Shown here: positions 1-58,278 of the stretch, piece by piece
How the letters are laid out: each line of letters starts with the position of its first letter
How positions within the stretch are numbered: position 1 is the first letter of the stretch
Source of the DNA: Pseudomonadota bacterium
GTDB taxonomy: Bacteria > Pseudomonadota > Alphaproteobacteria > UBA828
Direction: 5' to 3'
DNA: 64,000 bases
Assembly: GCA_027624955.1 (NCBI GenBank)
Contig: JAQBTG010000002.1
Span: 24,694-88,693, forward strand
The notes under the pieces: model-generated
What the model was told of the DNA's origin: nothing
The model's database searches: none
Seen by the model: only the letters and a program-made list of their open reading frames with translations
Program-made: the position numbers and the translations under genes

Positions 1-833
1 TCCATCGAAATTCCAACCAGGATCGCGAATACCCGCCAAATGCGCCAGAAGGCGATATCGACCGCTTGCTGCGCCTCTGCCTTTTTGCCGTTGCGAATCA
101 TGATCTGAATGACCGGCGTGCCGATCTGGGCATGGCGCGCTTCATCTGATTGGATGCTGGTGATCAGGTTTGAGAAGGTGTAATCGCCCATGTTCGCGGC
201 ATCGCGCGACAGGCCGATCATCTGGACGTTGGTCAGGCCGGTCTCAAAAGCGAAATTGAGCATGAGTGAAGTGGTCGGCGCGTCGCGCGTCATCATCACA
301 TCGTCGAGCGCATGACGGCCAGCAACGACGGCCCAATTCTGGGTGTGATGGGCCTGATGCGCCCAATCGAATTGACGGTCTTTTTTGGCTAGCGCATGGG
401 CGAACCAGAGATGGATCTGGCCGTGCCGCATTTCGTCCAGCATGCCGAAGGTCGCCATGTTGCGCATGCTCGGCGCGCGGCCGAAGCGCACCATCCGTTC
501 GTCCGCATGGCAGGCGGCATATTCGGATAAAGAGATCGAGCCATAATGCATTTTTAAGGCGCTTAAATAGGCCGGGTCGGCGTCTTCGTAATAATCGGAA
601 TGTGCGAGGGCGGTGCGGACAGAATAGGCGCCCGAGTCTTTCTCGCGCTGAATGCGGACATATTCGCGGTACGACACTTTATAGGGCTCGTCGAACGTCT
701 CCCACTCGGCGACCGGAATGCCGTAGGGATCGCTCATTTCCGGCGGGAATATTTCCTGTTCATCGACATAGCGCGGCGTCCAGTTGGTGTCGCGCGCGAG
801 GTCGTACCATTCGGAGCGTTCGAGTCTGGGCAT
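1..833 (-). CDS. Soluble di-iron monooxygenase hydroxylase alpha subunit (TmoA/TouA-like, aromatic/alkene monooxygenase). Only the N-terminal ~277 aa are present; the 3' end lies beyond the window start.
   Basis: The reverse-strand translation from the ATG at 833 (RBS GGAGG 6 nt upstream) gives MPRLERSEWYDLARDTNWTPRYVDEQEIFPPEMSDPYGIPVAEWETFDEPYKVSYREYVRIQREKDSGAYSV..., which by recall closely resembles group-2 SDIMO alpha subunits (TmoA-like). Segments such as GMLDEMRHGQ and ITSIQSDEARHAQ are present. This ORF is missing from the six-frame track because it runs off the window edge. Confidence 0.8.
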   Translation of the reverse strand, partial: MPRLERSEWYDLARDTNWTPRYVDEQEIFPPEMSDPYGIPVAEWETFDEPYKVSYREYVRIQREKDSGAYSVRTALAHSDYYEDADPAYLSALKMHYGSISLSEYAACHADERMVRFGRAPSMRNMATFGMLDEMRHGQIHLWFAHALAKKDRQFDWAHQAHHTQNWAVVAGRHALDDVMMTRDAPTTSLMLNFAFETGLTNVQMIGLSRDAANMGDYTFSNLITSIQSDEARHAQIGTPVIQIMIRNGKKAEAQQAVDIAFWRIWRVFAILVGISM

Positions 834-1040
834 TGTCGTGCCTCCATGAAGCGATGACGTGCCGCCTTAGCAGCATTCCGTAGATCAGGAGCTGCCTCTC
901 CCGAGCAGAGAAAACCTAGCCCGGCAGGACGAATTGCACCGACGGTAGCATGTTTCTGGGAATGAGTCGGTGGTTTTGATCCAAATCAGCGCGGCACATG
1001 CGTCACCCGCGACGCTGGAAAGGGGCATCGGCTCGGAGTT

Positions 1041-1120
1041 GTCAGGCCCCAGGTCCTTGGACTTGTCAGGCCCCAGGTCTTTGGACTTATCAGGCCCCAG
1101 GTCTTTGGACTTATCAGGCC
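1041..1120. repeat. Perfect/near-perfect 24-bp tandem repeat, 3.3 copies (gtcaggccccaggtcYttggactt), in the intergenic region between the hyuB-like stop and the SDIMO alpha start.
   Basis: Units lie at 1041-1064, 1065-1088 and 1089-1112, with a partial unit at 1113-1120 that overlaps the hyuB-like stop codon. The spurious plus ORF 970-1239 reads SGPRSLDL x3 across it. Confidence 0.9.
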
Positions 1121-2961
1121 AATGCCGCGAGGCGGGATTGGCGGAGTTTGGTGGTGGCGCTGATGTCGACAGCGAGATCGTCGCGCGCCGGCGAGCCGGT
1201 GATGATCACGCCATAGACCGCTTCGGCCTTGGCGCGTGAGACATAGCGCTCCTGCACATCGTTGAGAACACGTTCGGTCTCGCGCGTCAGGGGGTCGCCG
1301 TAGCCGCCACCGCCATTGTCGACGGCGCGTAATCTATCGCCCGGCGAGAGATGGCAATAGGCATCGGTGGAATAAAACTCCTCGCTGCCGTCGGCGGCAA
1401 TCTTCATTTGGATGGCGGGCTGCGACGGCAAGCCGCCGAGCACGCCCTGCGGCACATTTTCCAAGCCGTTGGCGATATTGATGATCAGCATGGGTTCGAT
1501 GCGCGGCCCCATGATCACTTCCGACGCCGGGCCGCCGCGCCGCCGTCCGGCGCCGCATGAATCCTCCAGCGCGCGCACGCTTTCAACCTGGAACGGAAAG
1601 CGCTGTTCGTTGACCTCGATGCTGTCGCGGTAGACCAGCCCGGCGCTGACCGGATTGACCATGCCGTGCATGCCGTCATTGCGCGCTGAGGCGGGCATGC
1701 CGCCGGCCGACATGAACATCTGGTTCACATAGGGTGCGCCGCCGTTGCGCCAATCCTTGCCCGAGCACACGCCCGTGCCGGCGCCGTTGCACATATTGCC
1801 CTGGCTGAAGCCATAGCCGTCGCCGAGCTGAGCGAAGCCGGCCTGAATGGTATTGATGATGGTATCGGTCATATTGGTGGTGGCGACCGAGCAGCTATGC
1901 GGAAAGCGCGGAATGCCGGTGACGCAATTTTCGCGCAGCAGAATATCCAGCCGCCGGAAGCTGCCGGAATTGTGCGGAATGTCGGGATCGAGGCAGCAGA
2001 ACACCGCTTGCGCCGCCGACATGGTGGAGGTCGCCTCGGTCAGATTTAGTCCGGCATCGACGGAATCCGGATTGTCGCGCAGATCCACCTTGATCCGGCC
2101 GTCGGTGCTGTCGATATCGATAGCGACTTTGATCTGAATGCCGTCCGGCAGAAACGGCATGATCGGATCATGCACGCCGGTGGCGGAGATGGTGCCACCC
2201 GGCAGAGCGCGGATCGCCTCGGCCGTCCGTCGCTCGGAATAATCGAACCAGTCGGCGACGAATTTGCGCGTCATGGCCTTGCCGTATTTGCCGATGAACT
2301 CCTTCAGCCGGCGCTCGCCGATGCGGGCCGCGCCCATCGCCGCGAGATAATCGCCATACCATTGATCAGGCACGCGGATGCGCCGGCGGCACATGCGGAT
2401 GATATCCTGGTTGTCCTCATAATCGCTTTGCACCTGCACACAGGGAAAGATCAGCGCGCCTTCTTGATAGACGTCCTTGGCGGCGGCGAAATAGGTCGTC
2501 GGCTGGCTATTGCCGCAATCGGCCTGATGCGCCTTGACCGCCGCCGTAAAGAAATGCTCGCCCTCAAAAAATACCGGAATGAGAAAGGTATGATCCGCGG
2601 GGTGGCTGTTGCCGACATAGGGATCATTGTCGAGAAAGGCATCGCCCTCGCGAAAATCCGGATGATATTTCGCCATCGAGGCGGTTTGCAGATGCATGCC
2701 AAACACATGAATCGGCATCGCCTCGGCGACCGCCAGAACCTCGTCATCCGAGGTGATAATCGCGCAGGAAAAATCGCGCGCGATGCCGATCACCGCCGAG
2801 CGGGCGGAGAACAACACGGTGTTGGTCATCTCACGGCAGATCGCGTCCATGCGGTTGGCCATGATGGCGAGCAGCACAGAGTCGAACTGGCCGTCCTGGT
2901 CCGCCTGGCTCGTCTGGTCCGTCCCTGTACCGGACGCGGGATTGTTCTTGGATATAGCCAT
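1114..2961 (-). CDS. Hydantoinase B / 5-oxoprolinase family protein (HyuB-like, ATP-dependent amidohydrolase beta subunit).
   Basis: A 615-aa ORF with typical HyuB architecture and length. A GGGGAG RBS sits before the ATG, and the gene lies 12 bp downstream of the hyuA-like gene, so the two are translationally coupled. Confidence 0.85.
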   Translation of the reverse strand: MAISKNNPASGTGTDQTSQADQDGQFDSVLLAIMANRMDAICREMTNTVLFSARSAVIGIARDFSCAIITSDDEVLAVAEAMPIHVFGMHLQTASMAKYHPDFREGDAFLDNDPYVGNSHPADHTFLIPVFFEGEHFFTAAVKAHQADCGNSQPTTYFAAAKDVYQEGALIFPCVQVQSDYEDNQDIIRMCRRRIRVPDQWYGDYLAAMGAARIGERRLKEFIGKYGKAMTRKFVADWFDYSERRTAEAIRALPGGTISATGVHDPIMPFLPDGIQIKVAIDIDSTDGRIKVDLRDNPDSVDAGLNLTEATSTMSAAQAVFCCLDPDIPHNSGSFRRLDILLRENCVTGIPRFPHSCSVATTNMTDTIINTIQAGFAQLGDGYGFSQGNMCNGAGTGVCSGKDWRNGGAPYVNQMFMSAGGMPASARNDGMHGMVNPVSAGLVYRDSIEVNEQRFPFQVESVRALEDSCGAGRRRGGPASEVIMGPRIEPMLIINIANGLENVPQGVLGGLPSQPAIQMKIAADGSEEFYSTDAYCHLSPGDRLRAVDNGGGGYGDPLTRETERVLNDVQERYVSRAKAEAVYGVIITGSPARDDLAVDISATTKLRQSRLAALA

Positions 2962-2973
2962 ATTTAAGCTCCC

Positions 2974-5064
2974 CTACGCCTTGCTCTCGGTTTCTGTTTC
3001 CAACATATAATTCCGCCGCGCCGTCACCCGTGCGGTGGCGCCGGGATAGACGACGATGGTGGTGGTTGGCTCCTCAATAATTGCCGGGCCAGCGATCACA
3101 GCGCCGGGGCTGAGGTCCGTGCCGACATAGACCGGCGCGTCGAGGGCGTCGTCGCCGCCGAAATAGGTTTTCGAAACACGCCTGGCTTCGGGCGCCTTTA
3201 ATTCGCCCGCCGCTTCTTCCGGCAAATTCGGCTTGTCGAGGATCGCGGTCAGCCGGCCCTTCCAATTGACGCATTCGATGGCGCCGCCTTCTTCTTTCAT
3301 GGCGTAGCGGCGGAAATGCACATCGTGGAACGCCTGCACCAAAACCTCTACATCGGCGGCGCTTTTGACCGTCTCCAGCGGCATGGCGAATTCCATTTCC
3401 CACTGTTGATTGATGTAGCGCGCCTCGACAAAATATTCGCTTTTGAACTGGTTGATGCCGCGCTCGCGCAATTCTTCGCTGAAGGCCTCGATCTGCTGGG
3501 TGATGCCGCCGAGCGCGCGATCGACGCCGGCGAAATCGAAATTTCCCGAATGGGCGTATTGGCTGGCGCTGAATTCGGCGACGATGTTGGAATATTGCCC
3601 ACCGCAGGCGCTAAGCGCCCCAGCGGTGCGCGGCACCAGCACTTTGGCGCAGCCGAGTGCCTTGGCGATGGGCAGAATATTGAGACCGGCAGCGCCGCCG
3701 CCGGCGACGAGAATGCTCTCCGCCGGGTTAACACCGTCCTGCACGGTGATTTCCTGAATCGCCTTGATCATCTGCTCACCGGCGATGGTGATGATGGCAA
3801 AGGCCGCCTGCTCAACGCTCAACTTGCTCTGATCGGCAATTGCCGAAACAGCCTTGCGCGCCGCCGCCACATCGAGCGCCATGCGCCCGCCGAGAAAGAA
3901 ATGCGGATCGATATAGCCGAGCACCACGGCGGCATCGGTGACCGTCGCTTCGGTGCCGCCGCGGCCGTAACAGGCCGGGCCGGGCATCGCGCCGGCACTC
4001 TTGGGGCCGACCCGGAGCAGGCCGCCTGAATCGATCCAGGCGATGGAGCCGCCGCCGGCGCCGACGCTCCGCACATCGACCGAGGAGAGGCCGAGATTGT
4101 GGCCGATCCATTCGCCGAGCAACCACGTCTCGCGGGTGAATTTGATTTGCCCGGCGCGCACCATGCTGACGTCGAACGTCGTGCCGCCGGTGTCGACGAT
4201 GATGACGTCGTTGCCTTCGCCTTCCGCCTCGGCATAAGCGATGCCCGCCAGGGGCGCCATGGCCGGCCCCGATTTAACCGTGTAGATCGGCTTCTCAACC
4301 ACATCTTTGACATGCATAACGCCGCCCGAGCACGCGCTCACCAGGATTTCGCCCTGATAGTTGGCCGCGCGCAGATCGCTCTCAAAGCCAGAAAGATGGT
4401 GCTGCATGAGCGGCTTTAGCGAGGCATCGATGGCGGTGGAGGAGGTGCGCGGATATTCGCGGATGATCGGATTGAGCTGATGCGACAGCGTGTAGGGAAT
4501 GCCCGGCAGGATCTCTGCAATCAATTCGCCAAGGCGCTTTTCATGCGCCGAATTGACGATCGACCAAAGCAGGCTCACCGCGACGGCCTCGATATTCATG
4601 TTCGCCAGGCCGGCGATGGTGGCGCGCGCCGCCGCTTCGTCGAGCGCTGTCTCGACGCCGCCTTCGGCATTGATGCGCTCGGGAATTTCGAAGGTGAGGC
4701 GGCGCGGCACGTAGGGCGGTGGAAACTCAATCACAATATTGAGCGGCTCGCGCTTGCCGCCTTGGCGGTACAGCAGAATGTCGGGGAAGCCTTCGGTCAC
4801 GAGGAGGGCGGTCTTGGCGGTCTTTTTTTCCACGATGGAATTGGTCGAGCGCGTGGTGCCGTATATCAAAACTTCAGTCTCGCCCAGTAGAGTCACCACC
4901 GGAACACCGATGATTTCCGCCGCATTGGTCAACGCGGCGGAAAAGCCGTCATAGCTGCGTTCGGGTGTGGTCAGCGCCTTGCCGACCACCAAATGCCCTT
5001 GTGCATCTGCAACGACGACATCGGTGAAGGTGCCGCCAGTATCGACGGCAATGCGATAGCCCAT
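2974..5064 (-). CDS. Hydantoinase A / oxoprolinase family protein (HyuA-like). The start is probably the internal Met giving MGYRIAVDTGGTFTD (5064); the longest ORF extends to 5106.
   Basis: The N-terminal DxGGTFTD ATPase motif is present (RIAVDTGGTFTDVVV). Length is about 697 aa, and it forms a pair with the downstream HyuB-like gene. Confidence 0.85.
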   Translation of the reverse strand: MGYRIAVDTGGTFTDVVVADAQGHLVVGKALTTPERSYDGFSAALTNAAEIIGVPVVTLLGETEVLIYGTTRSTNSIVEKKTAKTALLVTEGFPDILLYRQGGKREPLNIVIEFPPPYVPRRLTFEIPERINAEGGVETALDEAAARATIAGLANMNIEAVAVSLLWSIVNSAHEKRLGELIAEILPGIPYTLSHQLNPIIREYPRTSSTAIDASLKPLMQHHLSGFESDLRAANYQGEILVSACSGGVMHVKDVVEKPIYTVKSGPAMAPLAGIAYAEAEGEGNDVIIVDTGGTTFDVSMVRAGQIKFTRETWLLGEWIGHNLGLSSVDVRSVGAGGGSIAWIDSGGLLRVGPKSAGAMPGPACYGRGGTEATVTDAAVVLGYIDPHFFLGGRMALDVAAARKAVSAIADQSKLSVEQAAFAIITIAGEQMIKAIQEITVQDGVNPAESILVAGGGAAGLNILPIAKALGCAKVLVPRTAGALSACGGQYSNIVAEFSASQYAHSGNFDFAGVDRALGGITQQIEAFSEELRERGINQFKSEYFVEARYINQQWEMEFAMPLETVKSAADVEVLVQAFHDVHFRRYAMKEEGGAIECVNWKGRLTAILDKPNLPEEAAGELKAPEARRVSKTYFGGDDALDAPVYVGTDLSPGAVIAGPAIIEEPTTTIVVYPGATARVTARRNYMLETETESKA

Positions 5065-5368
5065 TCCTGCTCTCCCGATTTCTTCATATTTGGCCGTGCG
5101 TACCACGCATTTTTAAGATGCTCGACGACCTTGTCCTTGGATTCGATCTTGCGCGAATTGGAGGCGGCGATCAAATACTCAAGCGCGTCTTTGGCAAAAC
5201 AGTCGAAATTATTTTTCGCCGCGCCGACGTCTAGGCTCCTCAGCCGCACGCCATCCTGTGACCAGGCCGTTTTTTGCGCTCGATCTCCAGCCAGCCAATA
5301 TTTTTAAAGCCTTGTTGGTGGCGGCCAGCTAACGTAGCAGCCCTCTGGATTGGGAAGGCGGCAAAATT

Positions 5369-6118
5369 ATGTTGAAGGATCGCGTGGGACTGGTGACGGG
5401 TGGTGCGTCCGGAATTGGGCGGGCGACGGTACTGGCCATGGCTGCGGCGGGGGCCAAGGTTCTCGTCGCCGATATCGATGAAGCGGGCGGTGAAGCGGTG
5501 GCGCGCGAAGTAACGGAGGCCGGTGGCGTCGCCGAGTTTCTGCGCGCCGATGTGTCTAACGCGGCAGATGTGAACGCCATGGTGGCGCGCGCATTGAGCG
5601 CCTTTGGCAGGCTCGATGCCGCCGTCAACAATGCCGGCCTCGAGGGCCCTGAGGCGCCGGTACAGGGACAGGACATGGCGCAGGTGCAGCGCGTGTTCGA
5701 TATCATGATTAACGGCGTCTATCTCGCCATGCAGGCTGAGATACCGGCCATGCTGGCTGGCGGCGGTGGCGCCATCGTCAATATGAGTTCGATTTGGGGC
5801 TTGTTCGGCTACGCCGATTGGTCGCCCTATATCACCGCAAAGCACGCGGTTTCCGGCATGACCAAAGCGGTGGCGCTTGAAGTCGCGGCCCAAGGCATCC
5901 GCATCAATGCGGTTGCCCCCGGACCGATCCACACGCCGCTCCTGCTGCGCCTGTGGGATAACGATCTCTCTGGGTCGGCGGCACGCGTGCCGATGCGCCG
6001 CATCGGCCAGCCCGAGGAGGTTGCCAATGCGGTCGTCTGGTTGCTTTCAGATCAATCCAGTTTCATCACCGGCCATATCCTGCCGATCGATGGCGGCATG
6101 CTGGCCGAGAAGGGCTGA
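5369..6118 (+). CDS. SDR family NAD(P)-dependent oxidoreductase.
   Basis: It carries TGGASGIGRA (the Rossmann TGxxxGxG motif), NNAG, and the catalytic S...YxxxK (YITAKH). It is paralogous to the SDR at 33551-34303. Confidence 0.9.
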   Translation: MLKDRVGLVTGGASGIGRATVLAMAAAGAKVLVADIDEAGGEAVAREVTEAGGVAEFLRADVSNAADVNAMVARALSAFGRLDAAVNNAGLEGPEAPVQGQDMAQVQRVFDIMINGVYLAMQAEIPAMLAGGGGAIVNMSSIWGLFGYADWSPYITAKHAVSGMTKAVALEVAAQGIRINAVAPGPIHTPLLLRLWDNDLSGSAARVPMRRIGQPEEVANAVVWLLSDQSSFITGHILPIDGGMLAEKG

Positions 6119-6736: not shown

Positions 6737-8137
6737 CTAGTCTTCCGCCTCTCCTGGCCTGCTAACTAGGTAGAGCCAAATGAATCCAGCCACGCCCGCC
6801 AGCAGGGAAGCGGCAATAATGCCCGTCTTGGCCACCAGCAACAAATCATTGCGCTCGCCAAAACCGAGCTGAGCGACAAATATGGACATGGTGAATCCGA
6901 TCCCGGCCAGCAACGACACACCAGCGATCTGGGTGAACCGCGTATTTTTCGGTAGTTCGGCCACACCCAGCTTCAGCACCAGCCAACTTGCCCCAGTGAT
7001 GCCAATGAACTTGCCCACCACTAGACCGAGCGACACACCGTGCATCACCGGATTGGTCAAAATTTCACCCAGCGAACCAGAAGATAGCGGAATGCCGGCG
7101 TTGGCCAAGGCGAAGATTGGAATTACGAAGTAGGCCACCGGCATATGCCAGGTATGCTCCAATCGCTGCAACGGGGCTTCAACGCTGTGCACACTGTTTT
7201 TCAAGGCCTGTACGACGGCACGCAACTCGATATTGGTCATGATGCTTTTCCCAGGTTTGTGGCTGGCATCAAAACGCCTTATGAGTTCTTTGACGTGCTC
7301 ACTGAAACGTGTCGGGTCGTACTTTGGTATCGCTGGGACCGATAGCGCTCCCAATATGCCAGCCAGAGTGGCGTGCACACCTGATTGCTGCATGGCGTAC
7401 CACATCAACACCGCGACAATAAAATAGGGCATGGTATTGCGGATGCCGACCAGATTGAAAGCCAGCAGCAAAGCGAAGAGACCGCCGCAGAGCGCTAGGG
7501 GACCAAACGCAATGGTGTCGGTATAGAATAACGCAATCACCATCACGGCACCCAGATCGTCTACAATCGCCAGAGCGACCAGAAAGGTGATCAAGGCCTT
7601 GGGCACCCGGCTTGCCAGCAAAGCCAGGGCACCAACTGCGAAAGCGATGTCGGTGGCCATGGGTATCCCCCATCCAGCCGCCGCGTCGCCTTGTGGGTTG
7701 AAGGCAAAATATATCAAGGCAGGCACAACCATGCCGCCAATTGCCGCCGCAATCGGCAGGATGGCATTTCGTAGTTTCGCCAGTTCTCCTACCAGCAACT
7801 CACGTTTAAGTTCCAATCCGACGACAAAGAAAAATAGCGCCATTAGGCCATCATTGATCCAATGGTGCAGGGTCATTTCCAGCGCCCAACTGCCGATGTC
7901 GAGGCTGATTAGGGTATGTACGACATGCTCATAGACGGAAGCCAACGGTCCGTTGGCCAGTACCAACGCGACGATTGCCATACACATCAGCAGTAAGCCG
8001 CTCGTGGTCTGGCGGTGAATAAACTCTTCAAACGGCGTGAGGATTTTGCCGAAACTTTTTTCCCAGGGAGCGTAATAAACGCCTCTTTTCATTTTGGGAA
8101 TACGGTTTGCTCCTGTGTTTTTATTTTTCATCACCAA
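6737..8137 (-). CDS. nhaA: Na+/H+ antiporter NhaA. The start could alternatively be the Met at 8092.
   Basis: The NhaA signature region HWINDGLMALFFFVVGLELKRE and a 12-TM-type hydrophobic profile are present. It lies immediately downstream of nhaR. Confidence 0.9.
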   Translation of the reverse strand: MVMKNKNTGANRIPKMKRGVYYAPWEKSFGKILTPFEEFIHRQTTSGLLLMCMAIVALVLANGPLASVYEHVVHTLISLDIGSWALEMTLHHWINDGLMALFFFVVGLELKRELLVGELAKLRNAILPIAAAIGGMVVPALIYFAFNPQGDAAAGWGIPMATDIAFAVGALALLASRVPKALITFLVALAIVDDLGAVMVIALFYTDTIAFGPLALCGGLFALLLAFNLVGIRNTMPYFIVAVLMWYAMQQSGVHATLAGILGALSVPAIPKYDPTRFSEHVKELIRRFDASHKPGKSIMTNIELRAVVQALKNSVHSVEAPLQRLEHTWHMPVAYFVIPIFALANAGIPLSSGSLGEILTNPVMHGVSLGLVVGKFIGITGASWLVLKLGVAELPKNTRFTQIAGVSLLAGIGFTMSIFVAQLGFGERNDLLLVAKTGIIAASLLAGVAGFIWLYLVSRPGEAED

Positions 8138-9023
8138 ACAGCGACTGACGAGCTGCCTCCACTATGGCGGAGACGACTGGGTGCTTGACTTGGCGCTCGA
8201 CGGAGATGGCGTAGAAATGCGCTTTCACCTCATTGACCCGGCCAATCACAGTCACCTGATACTGCCTCTCCACCTCTGCCTCGATAACAGCGGGCGCTAT
8301 GAAGATCCCGACACCTTCTTGCCCAAAAGCCTTCATCAGCGCGCTGTCATCAAACTCGGCAATTCTTTGCGGGTAGATGCGATGTTTGTTCAGCCACTGA
8401 TCAATACTGGAACGCAGTTGATTGCCGGTACTCGGAAACAGTAGCGGTGCGCCTTCCAGACACTGGGGAAAATCACCAATTAGCTTCTTTTTCAGTTTCG
8501 CTGTGGCAAAGAAGCTGACCGCGCTCTCGCCAAGTTTATGACTAAAACTTCGCGTGCTGACCGTGGGAGGAACAGGACTGTCGGCCAGTACCAAGTCAAG
8601 GCGGTGCACGGACAATTCTGCCAGCAAAGTATCGAGACCCGTCTCGCGGCAAATCATGCGTACTGGGTCCGGCATCCGCAGCGCAGGCTGAAGAATTCGA
8701 TGGGCGATGGACTTGGATAGCACGTCGACAACACCAACCCGAAACAATTGGGGGCGGTCGTCAGGCAGCCGATGAATCGTATTTTCCAACTCACCGCCCA
8801 GCGAGAAGATCTCATCAGCATAGCTCAATACAAGTTGCCCGGTCTCAGTGAGCTCCAAATTGCGGCCGACCCGGGAGAACAGTTTCACTCCCAGATGCTC
8901 CTCCAGCAAACTCAGTTGCCCGCTGATCGTTTGCGGTGTCAGGTTTAGCCGTTCACTGGCCCTAGAGACGCCGCCCTCCCTAGCTACCGACCAGAAATAA
9001 TGTAGATGCTTGTAGTTGATCAT
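8121..9023 (-). CDS. nhaR: LysR-family transcriptional activator NhaR. The start is probably the Met giving MINYKHLHYFW (9023); the longest ORF extends to 9089.
   Basis: The N-terminal MINYKHLHYFWSVAREGGVSRASERLNLTPQTISGQLSLLEEHLGVKLF resembles, by recall, E. coli NhaR (INYNHLYYFWHV...LTPQTITGQI). Its stop is adjacent to or overlaps the nhaA start. Confidence 0.85.
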   Translation of the reverse strand: MINYKHLHYFWSVAREGGVSRASERLNLTPQTISGQLSLLEEHLGVKLFSRVGRNLELTETGQLVLSYADEIFSLGGELENTIHRLPDDRPQLFRVGVVDVLSKSIAHRILQPALRMPDPVRMICRETGLDTLLAELSVHRLDLVLADSPVPPTVSTRSFSHKLGESAVSFFATAKLKKKLIGDFPQCLEGAPLLFPSTGNQLRSSIDQWLNKHRIYPQRIAEFDDSALMKAFGQEGVGIFIAPAVIEAEVERQYQVTVIGRVNEVKAHFYAISVERQVKHPVVSAIVEAARQSLFGDEK

Positions 9024-9052
9024 CGGAATACCATAGTTCGATAAATACGAAT

Positions 9053-9075
9053 AATACGTCATATATATTCGTATT
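9053..9075. promoter_or_regulatory. Candidate LysR-type operator (a T-N11-A-style palindrome, AATACG-N11-CGTATT) immediately upstream of the likely nhaR start.
   Basis: An inverted repeat aatacg tcatatatatt cgtatt lies in an AT-rich tract 30-50 bp upstream of the Met at 9023. Confidence 0.4.
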
Positions 9076-9410
9076 TTATTGAATTTCAAGGATGGCCACC
9101 ATAGTTGTTGTTGAAACTACAACGACAATGCAGCGGAGGGGTTGATACGGGCTGACGTCACCCCGGACATCTTTTGTCTGATCCCATTCAATGCGCAGTC
9201 ATGCCTAAAGTTGGCGGCGTACTTATTTCCAATATTGGCGATCACATTCAACGATTGCCTGCGAGGAAATCTCGTTTCGGCGCAGGCCGAGAACATTGTC
9301 GATAAGGTAAGATGATAGGGAAAATGCATCCGCATGACGGGAATTTTGGAAAAACGGGGCATGGTAAAGCCACGAATTATTTATAACTTGAGAGACGAAT
9401 AAACTGTTAC

Positions 9411-9784: not shown

Positions 9785-11506
9785 ATGGATATTCCAGAGA
9801 CCCATCTTGACGAACTGCTCTTTGCCCTAGTGATCATCCTGGGGGCCAGCGCGGGCGCCATGGCTATCGCGAAGCGCTTCCGCTTAAGCCCTGTGATTGG
9901 ATTGTTCGCGACGGGGTTCGTTGTCGGGCCGTCGGTCCTGGGCATTACCCAAAACGTGAGCCAGCTTCGCGAGATTGCCGAGTTCGGCGTGGTGTTGCTT
10001 CTGTTCGTGGTCGGACTTGAGATGGCTCCGCGCAAATTGTGGGCGATGCGCACCCGGGTTTTCGGGTTGGGCTCGCTTCAAGTGGCGGTAAGCGGCGCGC
10101 TCCTGTTCGGCTTTCTCGTCGCCACCGCGCTGCCGTGGAACGTGGCGCTAGTCGTTGGCCTGGCGCTCGCACTGTCGTCTACAGCATTCGTCGCGCAGAT
10201 TCTTTCCGAGCGGGCCGAGCTGAACACCGAGACGGGGCGGACTAGCATTTCGATCCTCATCTTACAGGATATGGCGGTCGTTCCCTTGCTGGCGATGGTT
10301 CCGCTCATTTCGGAGGGCGCGCCGCAGATCGCGGGCGAGCCAATCTGGCTGCGCGCGTTGATGATCATCGGCGTCATAGCCATCGTGCTGCTGATCGGGC
10401 GCTTCGTCTTGCCGGTCTTGCTCACTTGGACGGCGAAGCGGCGCTTCATGGACGTGTTCGCCGTGCTCTCAATGCTTGCGATGTTAGCCAGCGCCTGGGC
10501 GATGGAGTTCACGGGGTTGTCCATGGCGCTCGGCGCCTTTCTCATCGGGGTGACGCTGTCGGTGTCGGATTATCGCCATCAGGTCGAGGCGGCGGTGTTG
10601 CCCTACAAGGGACTACTGCTTGGGCTGTTTTTTCTCTCGGTCGGCATGTCGATCGACATCGCGGTGATAAAGCAGGAGTGGGTGCGGGTGATCTTCAGCG
10701 TACTCGCTGTCATCGGAATCAAGATCGCGGTCCTAATCGTGCTATGCGCTGCATTTCGGGTCTCGCGTCGGGCGACGATCCGCACAGCGTTCCTGCTCTC
10801 GCAAAGCGGCGAGTTTGGTTTCGTGCTACTGGGTTCTGCGCTGGCGAGCGGCCTCGTGGGCGAGGACCAGTTCGCCTTCGCCCTTGTCGTGATTTCTGTG
10901 TCGATGGCGGCGACGCCGGTTTTCGTCAAGCTCGGCAACGCGCTTGCCGACTTACTAGAAAGAGCGGGGCGCACATCTGCCCACTCCACGGCGGCCGACT
11001 GGGGCGAGGAAAAATACGTCGTGGTGACGGGAATTGGCAGGGTGGGGCGGATCGTTTGCGATATGCTCAAGGCTTCTGACATCCCCTACATCGCCTTCGA
11101 TGTCGACATTGAGAAGGTGGTGCGGGAACGGAAGTTGGGCCACCATGTCCGCTTCGGTGACGTCAGCGACCCGCACGTACTGACCTCGGGAGAACTCGCT
11201 CGGGCTGCGGCGGCGGTAGTGACGCTGAACGACAAGCGAGCCTGCGAAAAGGTGGTTAGTGCGCTGCGCAATTTCTATCCAGAAATGCCTGTACATGTGC
11301 GCGTCTATAATTTCGAGGACCGAGACGCGATGCTGGAGCGCGGGGTCGTTTCGGCGATTCCCGAAACCGTGGAAGCGAGCCTCGAGCTCGGCGCGGACCT
11401 TCTGCAGCACCTCGGCATATCCGACTCTGAGGTCCAGGACTTGCTCGGTATATTACGCGCAGATGGCTACGCACGGATCCGTAGCGGCGAGGAGAGGGGG
11501 GGCTGA
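9785..11506 (+). CDS. Monovalent cation:proton antiporter-2 (CPA2) family K+/H+ antiporter with a C-terminal RCK/TrkA-N domain (KefB/KefC-like). The track ORF begins at 9731; the Met at 9785 (MDIPETHL...) is more likely.
   Basis: A ~12-TM Na+/H+-exchanger-type membrane domain is followed by VVTGIGRVGRIVCDMLK, the Rossmann GxGxxG of the RCK domain. Total length is about 573 aa. Confidence 0.85.
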   Translation: MDIPETHLDELLFALVIILGASAGAMAIAKRFRLSPVIGLFATGFVVGPSVLGITQNVSQLREIAEFGVVLLLFVVGLEMAPRKLWAMRTRVFGLGSLQVAVSGALLFGFLVATALPWNVALVVGLALALSSTAFVAQILSERAELNTETGRTSISILILQDMAVVPLLAMVPLISEGAPQIAGEPIWLRALMIIGVIAIVLLIGRFVLPVLLTWTAKRRFMDVFAVLSMLAMLASAWAMEFTGLSMALGAFLIGVTLSVSDYRHQVEAAVLPYKGLLLGLFFLSVGMSIDIAVIKQEWVRVIFSVLAVIGIKIAVLIVLCAAFRVSRRATIRTAFLLSQSGEFGFVLLGSALASGLVGEDQFAFALVVISVSMAATPVFVKLGNALADLLERAGRTSAHSTAADWGEEKYVVVTGIGRVGRIVCDMLKASDIPYIAFDVDIEKVVRERKLGHHVRFGDVSDPHVLTSGELARAAAAVVTLNDKRACEKVVSALRNFYPEMPVHVRVYNFEDRDAMLERGVVSAIPETVEASLELGADLLQHLGISDSEVQDLLGILRADGYARIRSGEERGG

Positions 11507-27616: not shown

Positions 27617-28414
27617 CTAGCCGATCATCACGCCATTCTGGATACACAGCACCTCGCCCTCGTCGAGCGGCACCCAGCCCTCGTCTGAAAGCGGCACGCT
27701 GGCAACTAAGACAACATGCTGGTCTTCGCTGTCGAAATGCAATCCCGGAATATCATAGGCAGACTCCGGCGCGCATTGCCGGCACAGCCGATACAATCCG
27801 GGTGGCGCGACATTTCCCGAGGTGGGTTGTGTTCTCTTGTTGCCATGCGCAAAAAATGCATCGCCATCGGCGTAAAGGAAATTGGCCGGACCCAGCGGAC
27901 TGATTTCAGCCGCGAATTGACTAACGATTTGATGGCGGTGGGTCAGCGACGGAACCCCTCTGGTACTGAGCCAAAGCTCAGATAAACGCTCAAGCAGGAT
28001 GCAGAAGGCGTGCTCGGAATCGGTCTCTCCGACGGGTCGATAGCGCTGATATGACAGCGGCTTCGCCGTTTCGATGTCGTGCAGGTTGCCGTTATGCGCG
28101 AAGACATGCTTGCGCCCGCCAAGCTCCCGCATAAACGGGTGGGTGTTGATGAAAGATACGCTGGTCCCCGTCGCCGAGCGGATGTGCGAAAGAATGATTT
28201 TACTGTTGAGCTTTTGCCGGCCGATGAACTCCACCCATTCGCTGCCGGCGGCGGGCCCGGCCTCCTTGATGAGCCTGGCGTCGCGGTCTTCAAAATATGC
28301 GATGCCCCATCCGTCACGATGCGGCCCCGTGTCACCGCCATGCCTGGCGAACGTATCGAGGGAGAGTTTCGCGGTAACCGGAATATTGCTGGAAAGACCG
28401 AACAGTTCGCACAT
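27617..28414 (-). CDS. Class II (Ntn-type) glutamine amidotransferase domain protein, stand-alone (YafJ/EgtC-like amidohydrolase).
   Basis: The N-terminus begins MCELFG (Cys2 nucleophile after Met removal). A 265-aa GATase-II domain has no fused synthetase domain. Confidence 0.8.
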   Translation of the reverse strand: MCELFGLSSNIPVTAKLSLDTFARHGGDTGPHRDGWGIAYFEDRDARLIKEAGPAAGSEWVEFIGRQKLNSKIILSHIRSATGTSVSFINTHPFMRELGGRKHVFAHNGNLHDIETAKPLSYQRYRPVGETDSEHAFCILLERLSELWLSTRGVPSLTHRHQIVSQFAAEISPLGPANFLYADGDAFFAHGNKRTQPTSGNVAPPGLYRLCRQCAPESAYDIPGLHFDSEDQHVVLVASVPLSDEGWVPLDEGEVLCIQNGVMIG

Positions 28415-28508
28415 TTTATGAAGAAACCTTTTCAGCTATCGGCCTGGCAGCCGGCAATTGCAGCAGCGCAAAGGTGTTACCGCGTTTCAGCGGCGCCGGG
28501 TCGGGAAT

Positions 28509-29807
28509 TTAATCGCTCGGTGTTGGCACCTTTGGCGCGTGTTGCAGGACGTCGACATAATGTTCACGGATCGCTCCGAGGTTGACCTGATTCAGAAAGG
28601 CCGAATAAGCGAGGTAGGACACAAGAAACCGTAGGTCCTTCACCCAAGGCGGCAGATAGCGGGGAAATTGGCAAAGCCCTTCCTGGACCAATATGCAGAT
28701 CGCCGGCAGATCTTCGATGTTGAGTTTGCCGCAGAATAGCAAACGGATGCAGTCCAGCCGGTCGAGCTGCACGGCGACCCGCAAGAAATTATGAACGCGC
28801 AGAAGCCCTTCTAGATAGACCACATCCTTGGTAAACGGCGCACCGCCAGTGACCAATCCGCCGCGCACCACCCGGCGCGCATTTTCGAAGGATTGGCGCG
28901 TGCTGTCGGTGCGCTCGAAAAAGAATTTATAGATCTCGAGAAAATCGGCGCCGTCGATCGCCATTTGTATCGCGATGACACGGTCGGCCAAGCGGCGCAT
29001 GCGGCTCGGGTCCATAGCGCCACTGATGATTTCGGCGAACACGGCGAGGCCTTCTTGCGTGCGTGTGGTGCCGGGATGCCCCGCCGCCAGCAGGGGCATT
29101 CGCTTCTGCTCATGGCCATTCAGGGTGGTCCCGATATGGACGAAGGCCTCGTGCTGAATCAGTTGCGCGCAGTCTCGGTCGGAAAACACCGCATCGCTGC
29201 GAAATCGGATATAGCGTCCTCCGGCGATGGCTTTCGCGGATAGATGATCCATGATCTCAAGGCGCGGCGCGGCAGCGCCAAAATGCGCGACGACTTGAGG
29301 GCGGATTTGTTCGACCAGTTCGGTTGCGCTGTATTCTATGGGCGATTCGTCGAGGTGGAGGTCCTGATGCTTGAAGCCGGCCAGCACACCGTCGAGCGCC
29401 TGGGCGAGATCGATGGGACGGGTAACTTTATCCACCATGGCCGCATTCGGCGCGCCGTACAGCTCGGCCGACAATTCGAAAAATTCTTTCGTTCCGACGG
29501 CACCGACCATATTTGCACCGGTATCGACCACATCGGCGACCCTCGATAGCCAGTGATGGACGGGCGAGGAACCATCGATCAAGGCGCGGGCGGCGCGAGT
29601 GCGCTCGTGTGTTTCATCGGGGCGAATCTGGGTATACGTTACCTGTGGCAGGGCGCATGCTCTTTTCGCCATGAACGCTTCGTAAGCGTCTTCAGGCCAT
29701 GCCACGCTGCGCAACATGCGCACCGGGCGTTCAGCTTCGCGCAAGGCAGCGGCTGCTTCGATTATTCGATCGCGCTCTCGTGAGCTAAATTCGGCGGTGG
29801 CGTTCAA
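28509..29807 (-). CDS. DUF1704 / 'flavohemoglobin expression-modulating QEGLA motif' family protein, with an HExxH motif suggesting a gluzincin-like metallohydrolase. TTG start.
   Basis: It contains QHEAFVH (HExxH) followed 27 residues later by TRTQEGLAVFAE (the QEGLA motif, a possible third zinc ligand Glu). Length is 432 aa. An AAGGAG RBS sits 8 nt before the TTG. Confidence 0.65.
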   Translation of the reverse strand: MNATAEFSSRERDRIIEAAAALREAERPVRMLRSVAWPEDAYEAFMAKRACALPQVTYTQIRPDETHERTRAARALIDGSSPVHHWLSRVADVVDTGANMVGAVGTKEFFELSAELYGAPNAAMVDKVTRPIDLAQALDGVLAGFKHQDLHLDESPIEYSATELVEQIRPQVVAHFGAAAPRLEIMDHLSAKAIAGGRYIRFRSDAVFSDRDCAQLIQHEAFVHIGTTLNGHEQKRMPLLAAGHPGTTRTQEGLAVFAEIISGAMDPSRMRRLADRVIAIQMAIDGADFLEIYKFFFERTDSTRQSFENARRVVRGGLVTGGAPFTKDVVYLEGLLRVHNFLRVAVQLDRLDCIRLLFCGKLNIEDLPAICILVQEGLCQFPRYLPPWVKDLRFLVSYLAYSAFLNQVNLGAIREHYVDVLQHAPKVPTPSD

Positions 29808-29958
29808 GAACCTGGCTCCTTATGGTTTATCGTTTGTCGATCCCGGTAGGCTTAGAGGATACATATTGACCGCAGGCGAAGCGGCCGGTCGAGAGAATTG
29901 TGGAGATTCGCGATGAAATTTCTTTCTGGCGCGGCACGCGACAAGGGATAGGAAAAAC

Positions 29959-30342
29959 GTGACTCAGACATCACCAAACGCCGTGAATCTTCTCGGCGAA
30001 TTCGAAAATGTAACGGAATATTGGTCACCGCAAATCGTCGGGCAGGTCAATGACCAGTACGTCAAGATAGCCAAAGCCAAAGGAGTGCTGGCGTGGCACA
30101 AGCATGATGAGGAGGACGAGCTTTTCTACATCTGCAAAGGCAGCCTCAAGATCGAGTACGAAGATTCGGAGGTTATCCTCAACGAAGGCGACTTCCATAT
30201 CGTACCGAAAGGGAAAATGCATAATCCCGTGGCGGAATCGGAATGCTGGATCATGTTGATCGAAACGGTAACGGCAGCGCATACTGGCGATGTCGTGATA
30301 GAGCGGACCAAATCCATCGCGGCGCAGCGCAAGCGGCGCTAA
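29959..30342 (+). CDS. Cupin domain protein (cupin_2 type).
   Basis: A 127-aa ORF. WHKHDEEDELFYICKGSLKIEY....GDFHIVPKGKMHNP matches the two cupin motifs, G(X)5HXH and G(X)5PXG(X)2H. Confidence 0.7.
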   Translation: MTQTSPNAVNLLGEFENVTEYWSPQIVGQVNDQYVKIAKAKGVLAWHKHDEEDELFYICKGSLKIEYEDSEVILNEGDFHIVPKGKMHNPVAESECWIMLIETVTAAHTGDVVIERTKSIAAQRKRR

Positions 30343-30453
30343 ACGACGAACCCCCTGGATGGGCGACCGCCTGATTCGGGGTCAAGAACAGACCCAAAGT
30401 GCCGGAAAGTTCGGCAATATGTCTATTTCAGCCCTTACAAATTGGAGAATTTA

Positions 30454-30888
30454 ATGCCCGAATACATTCCCTCACCCATTGATTGGGTGCGCGAACAGAT
30501 AAAACTTTATGAAAGCAGCGGCGGTACCGAAGGCACCACATTGAAGGATACAGGATTGCCCTGCATCGTCATCACGCATAAGGGCAATAAGACCGGTGGC
30601 GTGCGCAAAATCGCATTGATGACGGTTAAGGTTGGCGATGGCTATGTGCTGATTGGCTCGAACGGCGGCGCGCCTACGCATCCGGTGTGGATTTATAATT
30701 TTAGGGCCAATCCGGACGTGGAAATACGGGATAAGACCAAGGTCCAAAAGATGCGGCTTCGCGAGGTTCACGATGATCCGGAACGCGAGAAGTTATGGCA
30801 GGCCGGTGTGAAGGCATTCCCCCCCTACGAAGAATACAAAGCAAAAACGTCGCGTAAAATCGCGGTCTTTATTGCCGAACCAATTTGA
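30454..30888 (+). CDS. Nitroreductase-family deazaflavin-dependent oxidoreductase (DUF385/Ddn-like PNPOx split-barrel).
   Basis: MPEYIPSPIDWVREQIKLYESSGGTEGTT...PCIVITHKG.KTGG.RK.ALM...GYVLIGSNGGAP.HP.W..N is the characteristic pattern of this family. The local GC is lower, about 52%. Confidence 0.65.
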   Translation: MPEYIPSPIDWVREQIKLYESSGGTEGTTLKDTGLPCIVITHKGNKTGGVRKIALMTVKVGDGYVLIGSNGGAPTHPVWIYNFRANPDVEIRDKTKVQKMRLREVHDDPEREKLWQAGVKAFPPYEEYKAKTSRKIAVFIAEPI

Positions 30889-30980
30889 GCTGACCGACTG
30901 CGGCAGCCGCACGCCCAAGATTGTGAGGCGTGCGGCTGTGACCGCATGGGTAAAGAGAATTCGGCGAAGGGAATTTGGTG

Positions 30981-31787
30981 ATGGGTAGGCTCGAAGATCG
31001 GGTGATCATCGTAACCGGTGCGGGTGCCAGCGGTGAAGGCATCGGCAACGGCAAGGCATGTGCAATTCACTATGCCCGCGAGGGTGCACGGGTCGTCGCG
31101 GTCGACATCAATAAAAGCGCCGTGGAGGAGACGGCGAATATCATCACCGAGGAAGGCAATTCAGTTCTAACCATATTGTGCGATGTCACCGATAATAGCT
31201 CGGTATCGGCGATGGTTGCGGCCTGCCTAAAAATCTATGGCCGGATTGATGTTCTGCACAATAATGTTGGCATTCTGGATGTTAACGGGCCGGTATCACT
31301 GCCCGAAGCGATGTGGGACAAAATTATCGATACCAACGTCAAGAGCATGTTTCTCACGTGCAAACATGTCTTGCCGGTGATGGAAAAACAGGGCAAGGGC
31401 GCGATTGTGAACATCTCCTCGGTCGCGGGAATCCGTTATTGGGGAACGCCGGCAATCGCCTACGACACGTCGAAAGCAGCGATCCTGCAATTTACCCGCA
31501 CCGTGGCGCTTGAATATGCCGCCAAGGGAATCCGCGCGAACTCAATTTTGCCCGGCGTTATCGATACGCCGTTGATCAACGCGTCGCTTGAGGAGATCAA
31601 TGACCCGGCTGAAGTTGAACGTATCCGCCAAGAGCGCCATGCCATGATTCCGATCGGGCGCATGGGCGATCCGTTTGAGATTGCCAAGGCAGCGGCTTTT
31701 CTGGCCTCCGACGATGCAAGCTATATCACCGGGACGGAATTGATCGTAGATGGCGGGCTGACGAGCACCTGCATCCCTACTTGGTAG
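30981..31787 (+). CDS. SDR family oxidoreductase.
   Basis: It has VIIVTGAGASGEGIG, NNVG, and S...YDTSK (the catalytic triad region). Confidence 0.85.
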   Translation: MGRLEDRVIIVTGAGASGEGIGNGKACAIHYAREGARVVAVDINKSAVEETANIITEEGNSVLTILCDVTDNSSVSAMVAACLKIYGRIDVLHNNVGILDVNGPVSLPEAMWDKIIDTNVKSMFLTCKHVLPVMEKQGKGAIVNISSVAGIRYWGTPAIAYDTSKAAILQFTRTVALEYAAKGIRANSILPGVIDTPLINASLEEINDPAEVERIRQERHAMIPIGRMGDPFEIAKAAAFLASDDASYITGTELIVDGGLTSTCIPTW

Positions 31788-31902
31788 GGGCGGCGACGCG
31801 GGGCGACGCGGCGCGGCCGTTCAAGCTATTTGATTTGGCGTTGATCTGCGCCGGCGCTGGTGCAGGAATGCGGCGCCATTCTGCCGCCCGCCGGGGCTAG
31901 CA

Positions 31903-33525
31903 ATGAAACTGGTCCACGGGCTCGCCTTCGATAATATACGCGGCGATATCTATGGTGGTCTCACAGCCGCCGTGGTCGCCCTGCCGCTGGCGTTGGCGTT
32001 TGGCGTTGCCTCCGGCGCCGGGCCAATGGCCGGGCTGTACGGCGCCATCATTGTCGGCTTTTTTGCCGCCCTTCTCGGCGGCACGCCAAGTCAAATTTCC
32101 GGCCCAACCGGGCCCATGACCGTGGTCATGGCGGTGATCTTCCTGCGCTATGCCGATCAGCCGGGCACCGCTTTTACGGTCGTGCTCATGGGCGGGCTAT
32201 TGCAAATTCTTTTCGGTGCGCTTCGTGTCGGTCGCTATATCAACCTGGTACCGTTTCCGGTGGTATCCGGCTTCATGAGCGGCATCGGCTGTATCATTAT
32301 CATCCTGCAATTGGCGCCGTTGATAGGGCAAAGCCATCCCGGCGCAAATGTTGTGCAAAGCCTGGGTGCCCTGCCCAGCGATATCGCCGCACTCAATTGG
32401 CAGGCCGCGTTGATCGCCTGCGTGACGCTGGGCATCGTCTATTTCACGCCACGGCCTATCCAGCGCCTCGTGCCGACTCCGCTGATTGCCCTGGTGATCG
32501 GCACCATCGTGGTGTGGCTGTTTCTTGCCGGTGTGCCGACCCTGGGTGAGATTCCAACCGGCCTGCCTGAACTGCAATTGCCGTCGCTCGATTGGCTGAC
32601 GCTCAGCGACATGGTGGGCTCGGCCCTGATGCTGGCGCTGTTGGGATCGATCGACAGCCTGTTGACTTCTTTGGTTGCCGATAGCGTTACACGGAGCCAG
32701 CACAATTCAGACCGCGAACTTATCGGCCAAGGCATCGGCAATTTTCTCGCCGGCCTGTTTGGCGCCATTCCCGGTGCCGGCGCCACGATGCGCACGGTCG
32801 TCAATGTGCGCGCCGGCGGGCGCACACCGATTTCGGGCATGGTGCATTCGCTGGTGTTGCTCGCCGTGGTGTTGGGCGCCGGGCCAATTGCCTCGCATAT
32901 GCCGCACGCTGTGCTGGCCGGCATTCTGGTCAAGGTTGGCATCGATATTATCGATTGGGGTTATCTCCGGCGCATCGCGCGAGCGCCGCGCGCCGGCATC
33001 GCCATCATGGGCGTGGTGCTGGGATTAACTGTGTTCGTCGATCTGATCATTGCGGTCGCGGTCGGCATCGTCTCGGCCAGCCTGTTGTTCGTCAAGCGCA
33101 TGTCCGATTTGCAGTTGGAGAATGTGCACGAGGTTTCAGAAGACCGGCCGCTCACGCCTGAAGAGGCGGATATATTAGAGCGCCACGCAGACGACATCAT
33201 AATCTACTACATTTCCGGGCCGATGAGTTTTGGCGCCGCCAAAGGCCTGACGCGGCGCGTCGCCGTCACCGGCGAATTCAAAGTGTTGGTGCTTGATCTC
33301 TCAGACGTGACGTTTATCGATACCAGCGCGTCGCTCGCCATCGAAGATGCCATGGCTAATGCTACGGAGTTGGGCCTGGACGCGCTCCTCGTCGGCCTAC
33401 GCCCGCGCGTACGCAATACGCTGGAACGGCTCGGCGTCATCCACAACATTCCCGCGCATCATTGTTTAGAGACCCGCGCCGAGGCGCTGACCTACGCCGC
33501 GGAATTGCTCGCCAAGCGCGGCTAA
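31903..33525 (+). CDS. SulP family inorganic anion transporter (sulfate-permease fold with a C-terminal STAS domain).
   Basis: A 540-aa ORF with multiple TM helices. Its N-terminus is SulP-like (GDIYGGLTAAVVALPLALAFGVASG), and the C-terminal ~120 aa are STAS-like. Confidence 0.85.
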   Translation: MKLVHGLAFDNIRGDIYGGLTAAVVALPLALAFGVASGAGPMAGLYGAIIVGFFAALLGGTPSQISGPTGPMTVVMAVIFLRYADQPGTAFTVVLMGGLLQILFGALRVGRYINLVPFPVVSGFMSGIGCIIIILQLAPLIGQSHPGANVVQSLGALPSDIAALNWQAALIACVTLGIVYFTPRPIQRLVPTPLIALVIGTIVVWLFLAGVPTLGEIPTGLPELQLPSLDWLTLSDMVGSALMLALLGSIDSLLTSLVADSVTRSQHNSDRELIGQGIGNFLAGLFGAIPGAGATMRTVVNVRAGGRTPISGMVHSLVLLAVVLGAGPIASHMPHAVLAGILVKVGIDIIDWGYLRRIARAPRAGIAIMGVVLGLTVFVDLIIAVAVGIVSASLLFVKRMSDLQLENVHEVSEDRPLTPEEADILERHADDIIIYYISGPMSFGAAKGLTRRVAVTGEFKVLVLDLSDVTFIDTSASLAIEDAMANATELGLDALLVGLRPRVRNTLERLGVIHNIPAHHCLETRAEALTYAAELLAKRG

Positions 33526-33550
33526 GTCGGACGACTAATGGGCGGCTCGC

Positions 33551-57444: not shown

Positions 57445-58278
57445 ATGATGAAACACAGAAAACTGGCCGCCACCACGGTGCTGGCTCTAATGATCGGCGC
57501 GGGAATTTCCACAGCAGCCATGGCCGATACGGCGGTCATCAAAATGAAATTCGATGAAGACAGCGGCGATCTTTATTTTGAGCCGGCCAAGGTCACTATC
57601 AATCCCGGCGATACCGTGGTCTGGCTGCAAGATGATGTCGACAACGAGCACAACGTGGCTGCCTATCCCAACCTCATTCCGGAAGGCGTGCAGCCCTTTG
57701 AAAGTCAGATGATGACGCGGGTAGGCGAAAGCTGGAGCATGACCTTCGACAAGGTAGGCAGCTATTTCTATCACTGCCATCCGCATGAGGCGGCGGGCAT
57801 GAAAGGGCTGATCGTGGTCGGTCGCGAATCTCTGCCGGAGGAATTCCGAAAAGCCAGAGCGGGTGATATGTCGCATGACCATGGCGACGGCGATATGGAC
57901 GACATGAAGCATGGCGATAAGGACGGCATGAAGCATGGCGACAAGGACGGCATGAAGCATGGTGACATGGACGACATGAAGCCTGGCGATAAGGACGGCA
58001 TGAAGCATGGTGACATGGACGGCATGAAGCATGACGACATGGACGGCATGAAGCATGACGACATGGACGGCATGAAGCATGGTGACATGGACGGCATGAA
58101 GCATGACGATAAGGACGGCATGAAGCATGACGACATGGACGGCATGAAGCATGACGACATGGACGGCATGAAGCACGGCGACGATGATGATCATCACCAA
58201 GATGGTGACAAAAAGGAGAACAAGATTATGGAGGATGGGCATGGCCACGATAATGACCATGGCGATCACCACGATTAG
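57445..58278 (+). CDS. Exported type-1 copper (cupredoxin: plastocyanin/pseudoazurin/amicyanin-like) protein with a C-terminal tail of 12 tandem 8-aa DGMKH(G/D)D(M/K) repeats.
   Basis: A signal peptide is present. The cupredoxin ligand pattern His...Cys-x2-His-x4-Met appears in FYHCHPHEAAGMKGLIVV. Residues from about 148 to 250 are a Met/His/Asp repeat array. Confidence 0.75.
   Translation: MMKHRKLAATTVLALMIGAGISTAAMADTAVIKMKFDEDSGDLYFEPAKVTINPGDTVVWLQDDVDNEHNVAAYPNLIPEGVQPFESQMMTRVGESWSMTFDKVGSYFYHCHPHEAAGMKGLIVVGRESLPEEFRKARAGDMSHDHGDGDMDDMKHGDKDGMKHGDKDGMKHGDMDDMKPGDKDGMKHGDMDGMKHDDMDGMKHDDMDGMKHGDMDGMKHDDKDGMKHDDMDGMKHDDMDGMKHGDDDDHHQDGDKKENKIMEDGHGHDNDHGDHHD
57886..58192 (+). repeat. 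24-bp tandem repeat array (about 12 units of gacggcatgaagcatgRcgaYaWg) encoding the DGMKHxDx repeats.
   Basis: Direct inspection shows highly regular 24-nt periodicity. The spurious minus-strand ORFs 57487-58296 and 57771-58169 are its reverse-frame translations (MLHAV / MPSMSSCF repeats). Confidence 0.9.

Follow-up and report, generated by a model that had tools for sequence, protein, structure and literature searches.

The locus analyzed here raises the question whether a 24-bp tandem repeat, which is situated between a hyuB-like gene and the start of a soluble diiron monooxygenase operon, takes part in the expression of that operon or is a repeat with no task of its own. The array is located near the beginning of the window, i.e. 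the whole stretch of 64,000 nucleotides that was analyzed. An earlier note on this DNA had considered an iterated binding site for an activator as well as a slippage-prone VNTR that modulates spacing and expression, and had proposed to compare the copy number across related assemblies and to search the genome for further copies of the unit. Our data make it probable that the array is a young, lineage-specific VNTR or minisatellite without dedicated function. The genes around it, and the part of the spacer next to the monooxygenase gene, are arranged as follows:

5106 to 2974, minus strand: hyuA.
1114 to 2961, minus strand: hyuB-like gene (Hydantoinase_B/oxoprolinase, 615 aa; Pfam PF02538, E=2e-120).
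834 to 989, minus strand: proximal spacer of 156 nt, conserved with the sister clade (from the alignment).
1 to 833, minus strand: 5' part of the gene for a TmoA-like alpha subunit of a soluble diiron monooxygenase (Pfam PF02332, Phenol_Hydrox, E=1.6e-69).

The gene for the alpha subunit starts with an ATG at position 833 and runs off the window; its full length of 501 aa is seen in L001, one of the independent assemblies listed below. The complete monooxygenase cluster, which extends downstream of window position 1, spans positions 12105-21848 in L001 and 10001-19696 in L037, a locus of the sister clade. It follows hyuA-hyuB in the order alpha (with YHS domain)-TmoB-MmoB/DmpM-beta-cupin_7-amidase-amidohydrolase_3-LanB_N-domain protein, and no ferredoxin or reductase gene was called within the cluster in L001 and L037. 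Outside the two clades, the closest homologues of the alpha subunit share at most 75% identity. A TmoA-type enzyme in such a cluster is unusual in its composition and context.

The analysis with Tandem Repeats Finder revealed one array at window positions 1035-1120, with a period of 24, 3.6 copies, 95% matches, no indels and a score of 144. It is made up of three full units and one partial unit of 7 nt at each end. In gene orientation, its parts and the adjoining sequence are:

1035 to 1120, no strand assigned: the 24-bp tandem array (Tandem Repeats Finder; unit matches only here, 0 expected by chance).
1114 to 1120, minus strand: last 7 nt of hyuB, GGCCTGA, with the stop codon TGA at 1116-1114, representing the first partial unit.
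1090 to 1113, minus strand: unit 1, TAAGTCCAAAGACCTGGGGCCTGA, directly after the hyuB stop and identical to unit 2.
1066 to 1089, minus strand: unit 2, same as unit 1.
1042 to 1065, minus strand: unit 3, CAAGTCCAAGGACCTGGGGCCTGA, with 2 substitutions; this unit has no counterpart in the L001/L049 allele.
990 to 1041, minus strand: a 52-nt tail, the first ~20 nt of which (CAACTCCGAGCCGATGCCCC) are a degenerate fourth copy.

The sequence across the hyuB stop hence reads ...GCA TTG GCC TGA, followed by TAAGTCCAAAGACCTGGGGCCTGA, TAAGTCCAAAGACCTGGGGCCTGA, CAAGTCCAAGGACCTGGGGCCTGA and CAACTCCGAGCCGATGCCCC...; since the genes are located on the minus strand, the unit given in the earlier note was written antisense to them. 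The existence of the 24-bp repeat is clearly supported, because matches to the 24-mer with up to 3 mismatches were found in the 64-kb window only at the positions of units 1 to 3, none were obtained in 100 dinucleotide-preserving shuffles of the window, and the array is seen in independent assemblies. It is not a perfect repeat as first described: units 1 and 2 are identical, unit 3 shows two differences, and the tail as the degenerate copy differs at 7/24 positions (17/24 matching by eye). Such a gradient of divergence would be typical of a growing array. The range 834-1120, formerly assigned to the array, comprises the whole spacer plus 7 nt of hyuB. It was correctly noticed that the array starts inside the end of hyuB, as its last 7 nt including the stop belong to the unit. 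The array is also located upstream of the monooxygenase start, as had been stated, but it does not fill the space there; of the 280 nt of the spacer, it covers no more than the 79 distal ones and ends 201 nt before the alpha ATG. The units are directly adjacent, with a start-to-start spacing of 24 that equals the unit length, and without the unique spacers of a CRISPR array, in agreement with the initial judgement on this point.

Further copies of the unit were not detected in the window or in 12-22 kb of L001, L002 and L050, so that the search suggested before gave no additional site in the ~75 kb covered. Fragments of the unit with 12-16 nt occur elsewhere in the 64-kb window at chance level. 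An exact 22-mer of the unit found no match in the GTDB species-representative genomes and JGI metagenome contigs, nor did a 26-mer from the clade-specific tail in the JGI metagenomes; these zeros show only that the unit does not belong to a widespread family, and the collections evidently do not contain the window clade, because even this locus was missed.

The copy number could be compared in independent assemblies of the same lineage, which were recovered by exact-protein look-up of HyuB and the alpha subunit:

L001, equal to L049 (ENA ERZ23495043): spacer of 256 nt, 2 full units.
L050 (ENA ERZ23495042): spacer of 280 nt, 3 full units.
L002 (GCA_027592445.1): spacer of 280 nt, 3 full units.
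L003 and L051 (Logan contigs): both end inside the array, which is partly seen in L051.

Over 12,961 aligned nt, L001 differs from the window by 1 mismatch and one 24-nt gap. The gap corresponds to exactly one unit, and the rest of the spacer is identical. The suggestion of a slippage-prone VNTR is thereby supported with regard to copy number (2 versus 3 full units, flanks with 1 SNP in 12.96 kb), and the proposed comparison across related assemblies shows a varying count, with L001/L049 having one unit fewer; this variation refers to a single copy-number change, i.e. two alleles, among four or five assemblies from few samples. Owing to 17 shared nt (GACCTGGGGCCTGACAA), every position of the deletion in L001 from 1042-1065 to 1059-1082 is equally possible, and the allele is most simply explained by a deletion between two such 17-nt direct repeats. 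The junction 21-mer AAAGACCTGGGGCCTGACAAC is present in the L001 allele and missing from the 3-unit allele; this argues against a k-mer collapse of the long allele by a de Bruijn assembler at k >= 21. We treat the short one as a genuine allele and the difference as a true copy-number polymorphism. Within the array, the 31-mer GGCCTGATAAGTCCAAAGACCTGGGGCCTGA is found two times, each time with another successor, and breaks of the Logan contigs inside the array are expected of a short-k-mer assembly. The array is no artefact of a single assembly, since it recurs in others that are independent (L002 and L050, L051 in part, and L001, where one unit is missing).

A wider comparison was possible with a sister clade, to which the cluster of alpha subunits at 90% identity led; it comprises 24 additional loci of other marine metagenomes (L037-L048, L052-L061). 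Its gene order, hyuA-hyuB-alpha-TmoB-MmoB/DmpM-beta-cupin-amidase-amidohydrolase-LanB_N, is that of the window, the DNA identity amounts to ~91-92%, and HyuB is equally 615 aa long. In all 24 loci the spacer between hyuB and alpha has 168 nt, in six sequence variants, and no trace of the 24-nt unit was found in these spacers. The alignment shows that the proximal 156 nt (834-989) are common to both clades, whereas the distal 124 nt (990-1113), i.e. the three units and the 52-nt tail, exist in the window clade only. Invariant blocks within the proximal 156 nt include AGAAACATGCTACCGTCG, GCAATTCGTC, GAATGCTGCT and GTCATCGCTTCATGGAGGC, and this part is presumed to represent the leader or promoter region of the monooxygenase operon. 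The proximal spacer of the sister clade contains a tandem duplication of its own, the 12-nt sequence CATTCTTAGAAA twice (L037 9857-9880), at the same position in 24/24 loci, while its counterpart in the window is a single copy (CATTCCCAGAAA). This independent duplication indicates that small tandem duplications by slippage are recurrent in this spacer.

The origin of the unit became visible in other HyuB lineages, which were taken at >=90% protein identity. In the Tara-type lineage (L062-L067) no monooxygenase follows hyuB; a nadA fragment is located downstream in L064, and no downstream gene was called on the other contigs of this lineage. In L068, a 183-aa ORF in ~0.8 kb replaces the whole 9.9-kb block from the monooxygenase to LanB, and the BPD_transp_1 and DctP genes flanking this block are kept. 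Small convergent genes (67-aa/DUF4197 genes) are found downstream of hyuB in L069-L074. The differing neighbours thus mark the hyuB stop as a synteny breakpoint. In the outgroup L062-L067 the hyuB stop reads GGTCTGA followed by CAAGTCCAA..., which is a single-copy homologue of the unit. Over the sequence GGTCTGA plus CAAGTCCAATCCGACGCGCC of L062-L067, 15/16 first positions match unit 3 (GGCCTGA plus CAAGTCCAAGG...) and 21/27 match the tail (GGCCTGA plus CAACTCCGAGCCGATGCCCC), and the first ~20 nt of the tail are the positional homologue of the post-stop hyuB sequence in L062. The presence of a single-copy homologue at the outgroup stop therefore identifies the unit as native hyuB-end sequence that has been tandemly duplicated. 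The unit is thus of local origin and was not imported as a module.

A stretch of ~70 nt in the proximal spacer (window ~870-936, minus strand) is also conserved in L037 (~9895-9965) and L068 (4930-5000), with the pattern GCAATTCG.CTT.CCGGGC.AGCT...TCG.TAGATG.AGC..CTCGTCAGC. In L068 it directly follows the hyuB stop and precedes an unrelated gene. Its retention there marks the proximal spacer, and not the array, as the conserved element. The stretch may be regarded as a candidate promoter or leader element; it showed no Rfam match and no significant fold.

Two other origins were considered for the 124-nt segment as a whole. A derivation from the 3' end of hyuB by duplication and divergence was rejected, as local alignment scores did not exceed those of shuffles, and so was a mobile-element or att-site origin, as no other copy of the 124 nt exists in any fetched locus. 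The monooxygenase island of L037 has no direct repeats (att-like) at its two ends, and no integrase was found. For 33 loci with hyuB relatives of 45-87% identity in representative genomes, no gene for a monooxygenase alpha subunit was located within 6 kb, hence they provide no orthologous spacer.

These comparisons are consistent with the following model for the young VNTR. A 24-nt segment across the hyuB stop, consisting of the last 7 nt of the gene and the first ~17 nt downstream, would have been duplicated in tandem, and the array would since then grow and shrink by slipped-strand mispairing or by recombination between direct repeats of 17-31 nt. It would do so outside the conserved proximal 156 nt, which presumably carry the expression signals of the operon. 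The only demonstrable effect of the array is on the length of the spacer, which changes in 24-nt steps (256 versus 280 nt). Given the missing conservation and the absence of motifs described below, the array is most likely neutral.

The variation in copy number among near-identical strains and the absence of the array from the closest relatives bearing the operon make a regulator-binding array very unlikely. This applies to the iterated site for an enhancer-binding or LysR-type activator of the monooxygenase operon considered in the earlier note. Three regular, near-identical units 200-290 nt upstream of the ATG would fit such a site, since enhancer-like upstream sites can act at this distance, and a LysR-family gene exists ~7 kb away (8121..9089). 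However, evidence against the activator-binding array in the monooxygenase promoter is given by the absence of the 124 nt from 24 sister loci, which keep the same operon and the proximal 156 nt, and by the derivation of the unit from the hyuB stop region. Sites for regulators of the DmpR/XylR/TouR/MmoR type are dyad-symmetric, paired with a -24/-12 promoter and conserved among orthologous operons. The array is likewise repeated and located a few hundred nt upstream of a diiron monooxygenase alpha gene, but a repeat search found no inverted repeat or dyad symmetry inside or between the units, and it is not conserved in orthologous operons. No sigma-54 -24/-12 element (TGGCAC-N5-TTGCW, <=2 mismatches) was detected in 834-1120, the window-wide count being that of chance, so that the motif scan agrees with the earlier inspection by eye, which had found no convincing element. 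A sigma-70-like promoter was not found in 1-5600 either, and no promoter-like hexamers occur in or near the array. LysR boxes have the form T-N11-A and are located near -65; no such dyad is present here. The gene at 8121..9089, the only LysR gene seen nearby, is situated directly upstream of, and overlaps, an NhaA-family Na+/H+ antiporter gene, and it is absent from the sister-clade neighbourhood, where it is not found beside hyuA. Finally, with a period of 24 nt, neighbouring sites would not face the same side of the helix, and partial matches of the unit at other places in the window do not exceed chance.

Another reading is an influence of copy number on expression. The number of units could alter how far hyuB, or a site upstream, is from the promoter and in which helical phase it lies, or it could affect read-through from hyuAB, and thereby the expression of the monooxygenase. 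Copy number indeed differs between near-identical strains, and 24 nt correspond to ~2.3 helical turns, so that each unit would rotate the upstream DNA by ~100 degrees. Neither the spacer nor the gene strand showed a terminator-like site; because the genes are also co-oriented, the array is probably transcribed together with them. Nevertheless, we consider such tuning unlikely: at least 201 nt separate the array from the ATG, with the conserved 156 nt lying in between, only hyuB coding sequence is conserved upstream of it, no promoter hexamers flank the units or occur inside them, and the sister clade has the same operon without an array. The contingency loci of Haemophilus and Neisseria likewise show slippage-driven changes of copy number in non-coding DNA upstream of a gene. 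Known repeats for promoter phase variation have, however, units of 1-7 nt within or next to the -35/-10 spacer, compared with 24 nt and a distance of at least 201 nt from the start codon for this array. Hence, position and unit length argue against this kind of promoter phase variation. The more specific version, a strain-variable cis element that tunes an unusual marine or brackish-water diiron monooxygenase cluster via hyuAB read-through or via the geometry upstream of the leader, is quite improbable. If true, a catabolic operon of a free-living aquatic alphaproteobacterium would be under the control of a contingency switch with long units.

The probable transcription of the array would also permit a role of the repeats in the intercistronic RNA, for example in processing, stability or protein binding, and in the MFE fold the units do pair weakly with each other. 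The folding energies, however, resemble those of shuffled sequences, with z-scores of -0.35 for the spacer and -0.31 for the sense strand of the array, and a range down to -1.40 across strands. No Rfam match at E<=1 was obtained in the spacer; two weak, sub-threshold matches within 1-6000 both lie inside hyuA. With a GGA motif limited to unit 3 and the array absent from the sister clade, an RNA-level element is highly improbable.

On the minus strand, the +1 frame stays open from within hyuB as far as position 885 and reads PDKSKDLG three times, with both substitutions of unit 3 being synonymous. A translated repeat, which would extend HyuB at the C-terminus after a frameshift or belong to a small ORF, could be deduced from this frame, but the frame contains no ATG, GTG or TTG start before 1028, which is located downstream of the array. 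Moreover, two substitutions fall into the same codon phase with a chance of ~1 in 3, and the sister clade lacks the segment with HyuB unchanged in length. Together with the alternative that the whole array is an assembly artefact, against which stand its presence in assemblies from different samples (window, L002/L050, L051) and a shorter allele that is hardly derivable from the longer one by k-mer collapse, the coding repeat is hardly credible.

The young VNTR without dedicated function can be placed next to known kinds of repeats. Bacterial VNTRs or minisatellites, as used in MLVA, likewise consist of head-to-tail units of tens of bp in intergenic DNA, with the newest copies being identical, and differ in copy number between near-identical strains with constant flanks. 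Head-to-tail units of 10-100 bp and copy-number variation with conserved flanks were found here; different from typed VNTRs, the present one is known with two alleles from uncultured metagenome-assembled strains only, to which no typing or phenotype is attached. MIRU elements also form tandem arrays of variable copy number that overlap an upstream stop in the intercistronic spacer of a co-oriented cluster. However, they are 40-100 bp long and dispersed at dozens of loci per genome, whereas the 24-nt unit is unique in the available sequence, derived from its own locus and thus without the dispersal of MIRU. REP/BIME elements are palindromic; the array contains no palindrome, folds with z-scores of -0.3 to -1.4, and its unit is unique in the window.

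Collectively, the array represents a clean, datable tandem duplication that was seeded at a stop codon and has by now become polymorphic within a natural population. A use as strain marker for this uncultured lineage is conceivable. The array can be dropped as a candidate regulatory site, and a search for the promoter or leader should be directed to the region 834-989. The significance beyond this locus is small.

Some observations on the lineage and its genome may be added. The study labels MEHR18 and COLA18 may refer to the Caspian Sea and the Arctic Ocean, and together with sample labels and record titles they suggest a brackish or marine origin of the lineage; no papers were found in the literature under the accessions of the samples and assemblies. 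The genes just upstream of hyuA in the sister clade (L037 1-5095), coding for an SDR, a sulfate transporter/STAS protein, an F420H2 quinone reductase-like protein, a cupin_2 protein and a GATase, map 22-30 kb away in the window (27631-34936). Upstream of hyuA, the window lineage therefore has an additional ~22 kb of DNA, in which the NhaA-type antiporter gene, the LysR gene, a Na+/H+ exchanger gene and a fused HyuA/B gene of 1284 aa are situated.

A second 24-bp tandem array with 12.2 copies is present at window positions 57889-58182, within the ORF 57445..58278 on the plus strand. This array is coding and specifies (G/D)D(M/K)DGMKH octapeptide repeats, which form an Asp/Met/His-rich C-terminal tail. 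The N-terminus of the protein is hydrophobic and resembles a signal peptide, a copper-binding domain of the plastocyanin/azurin type is present (PF00127, E=1.6e-19), and the tail is possibly an extra metal-binding region.
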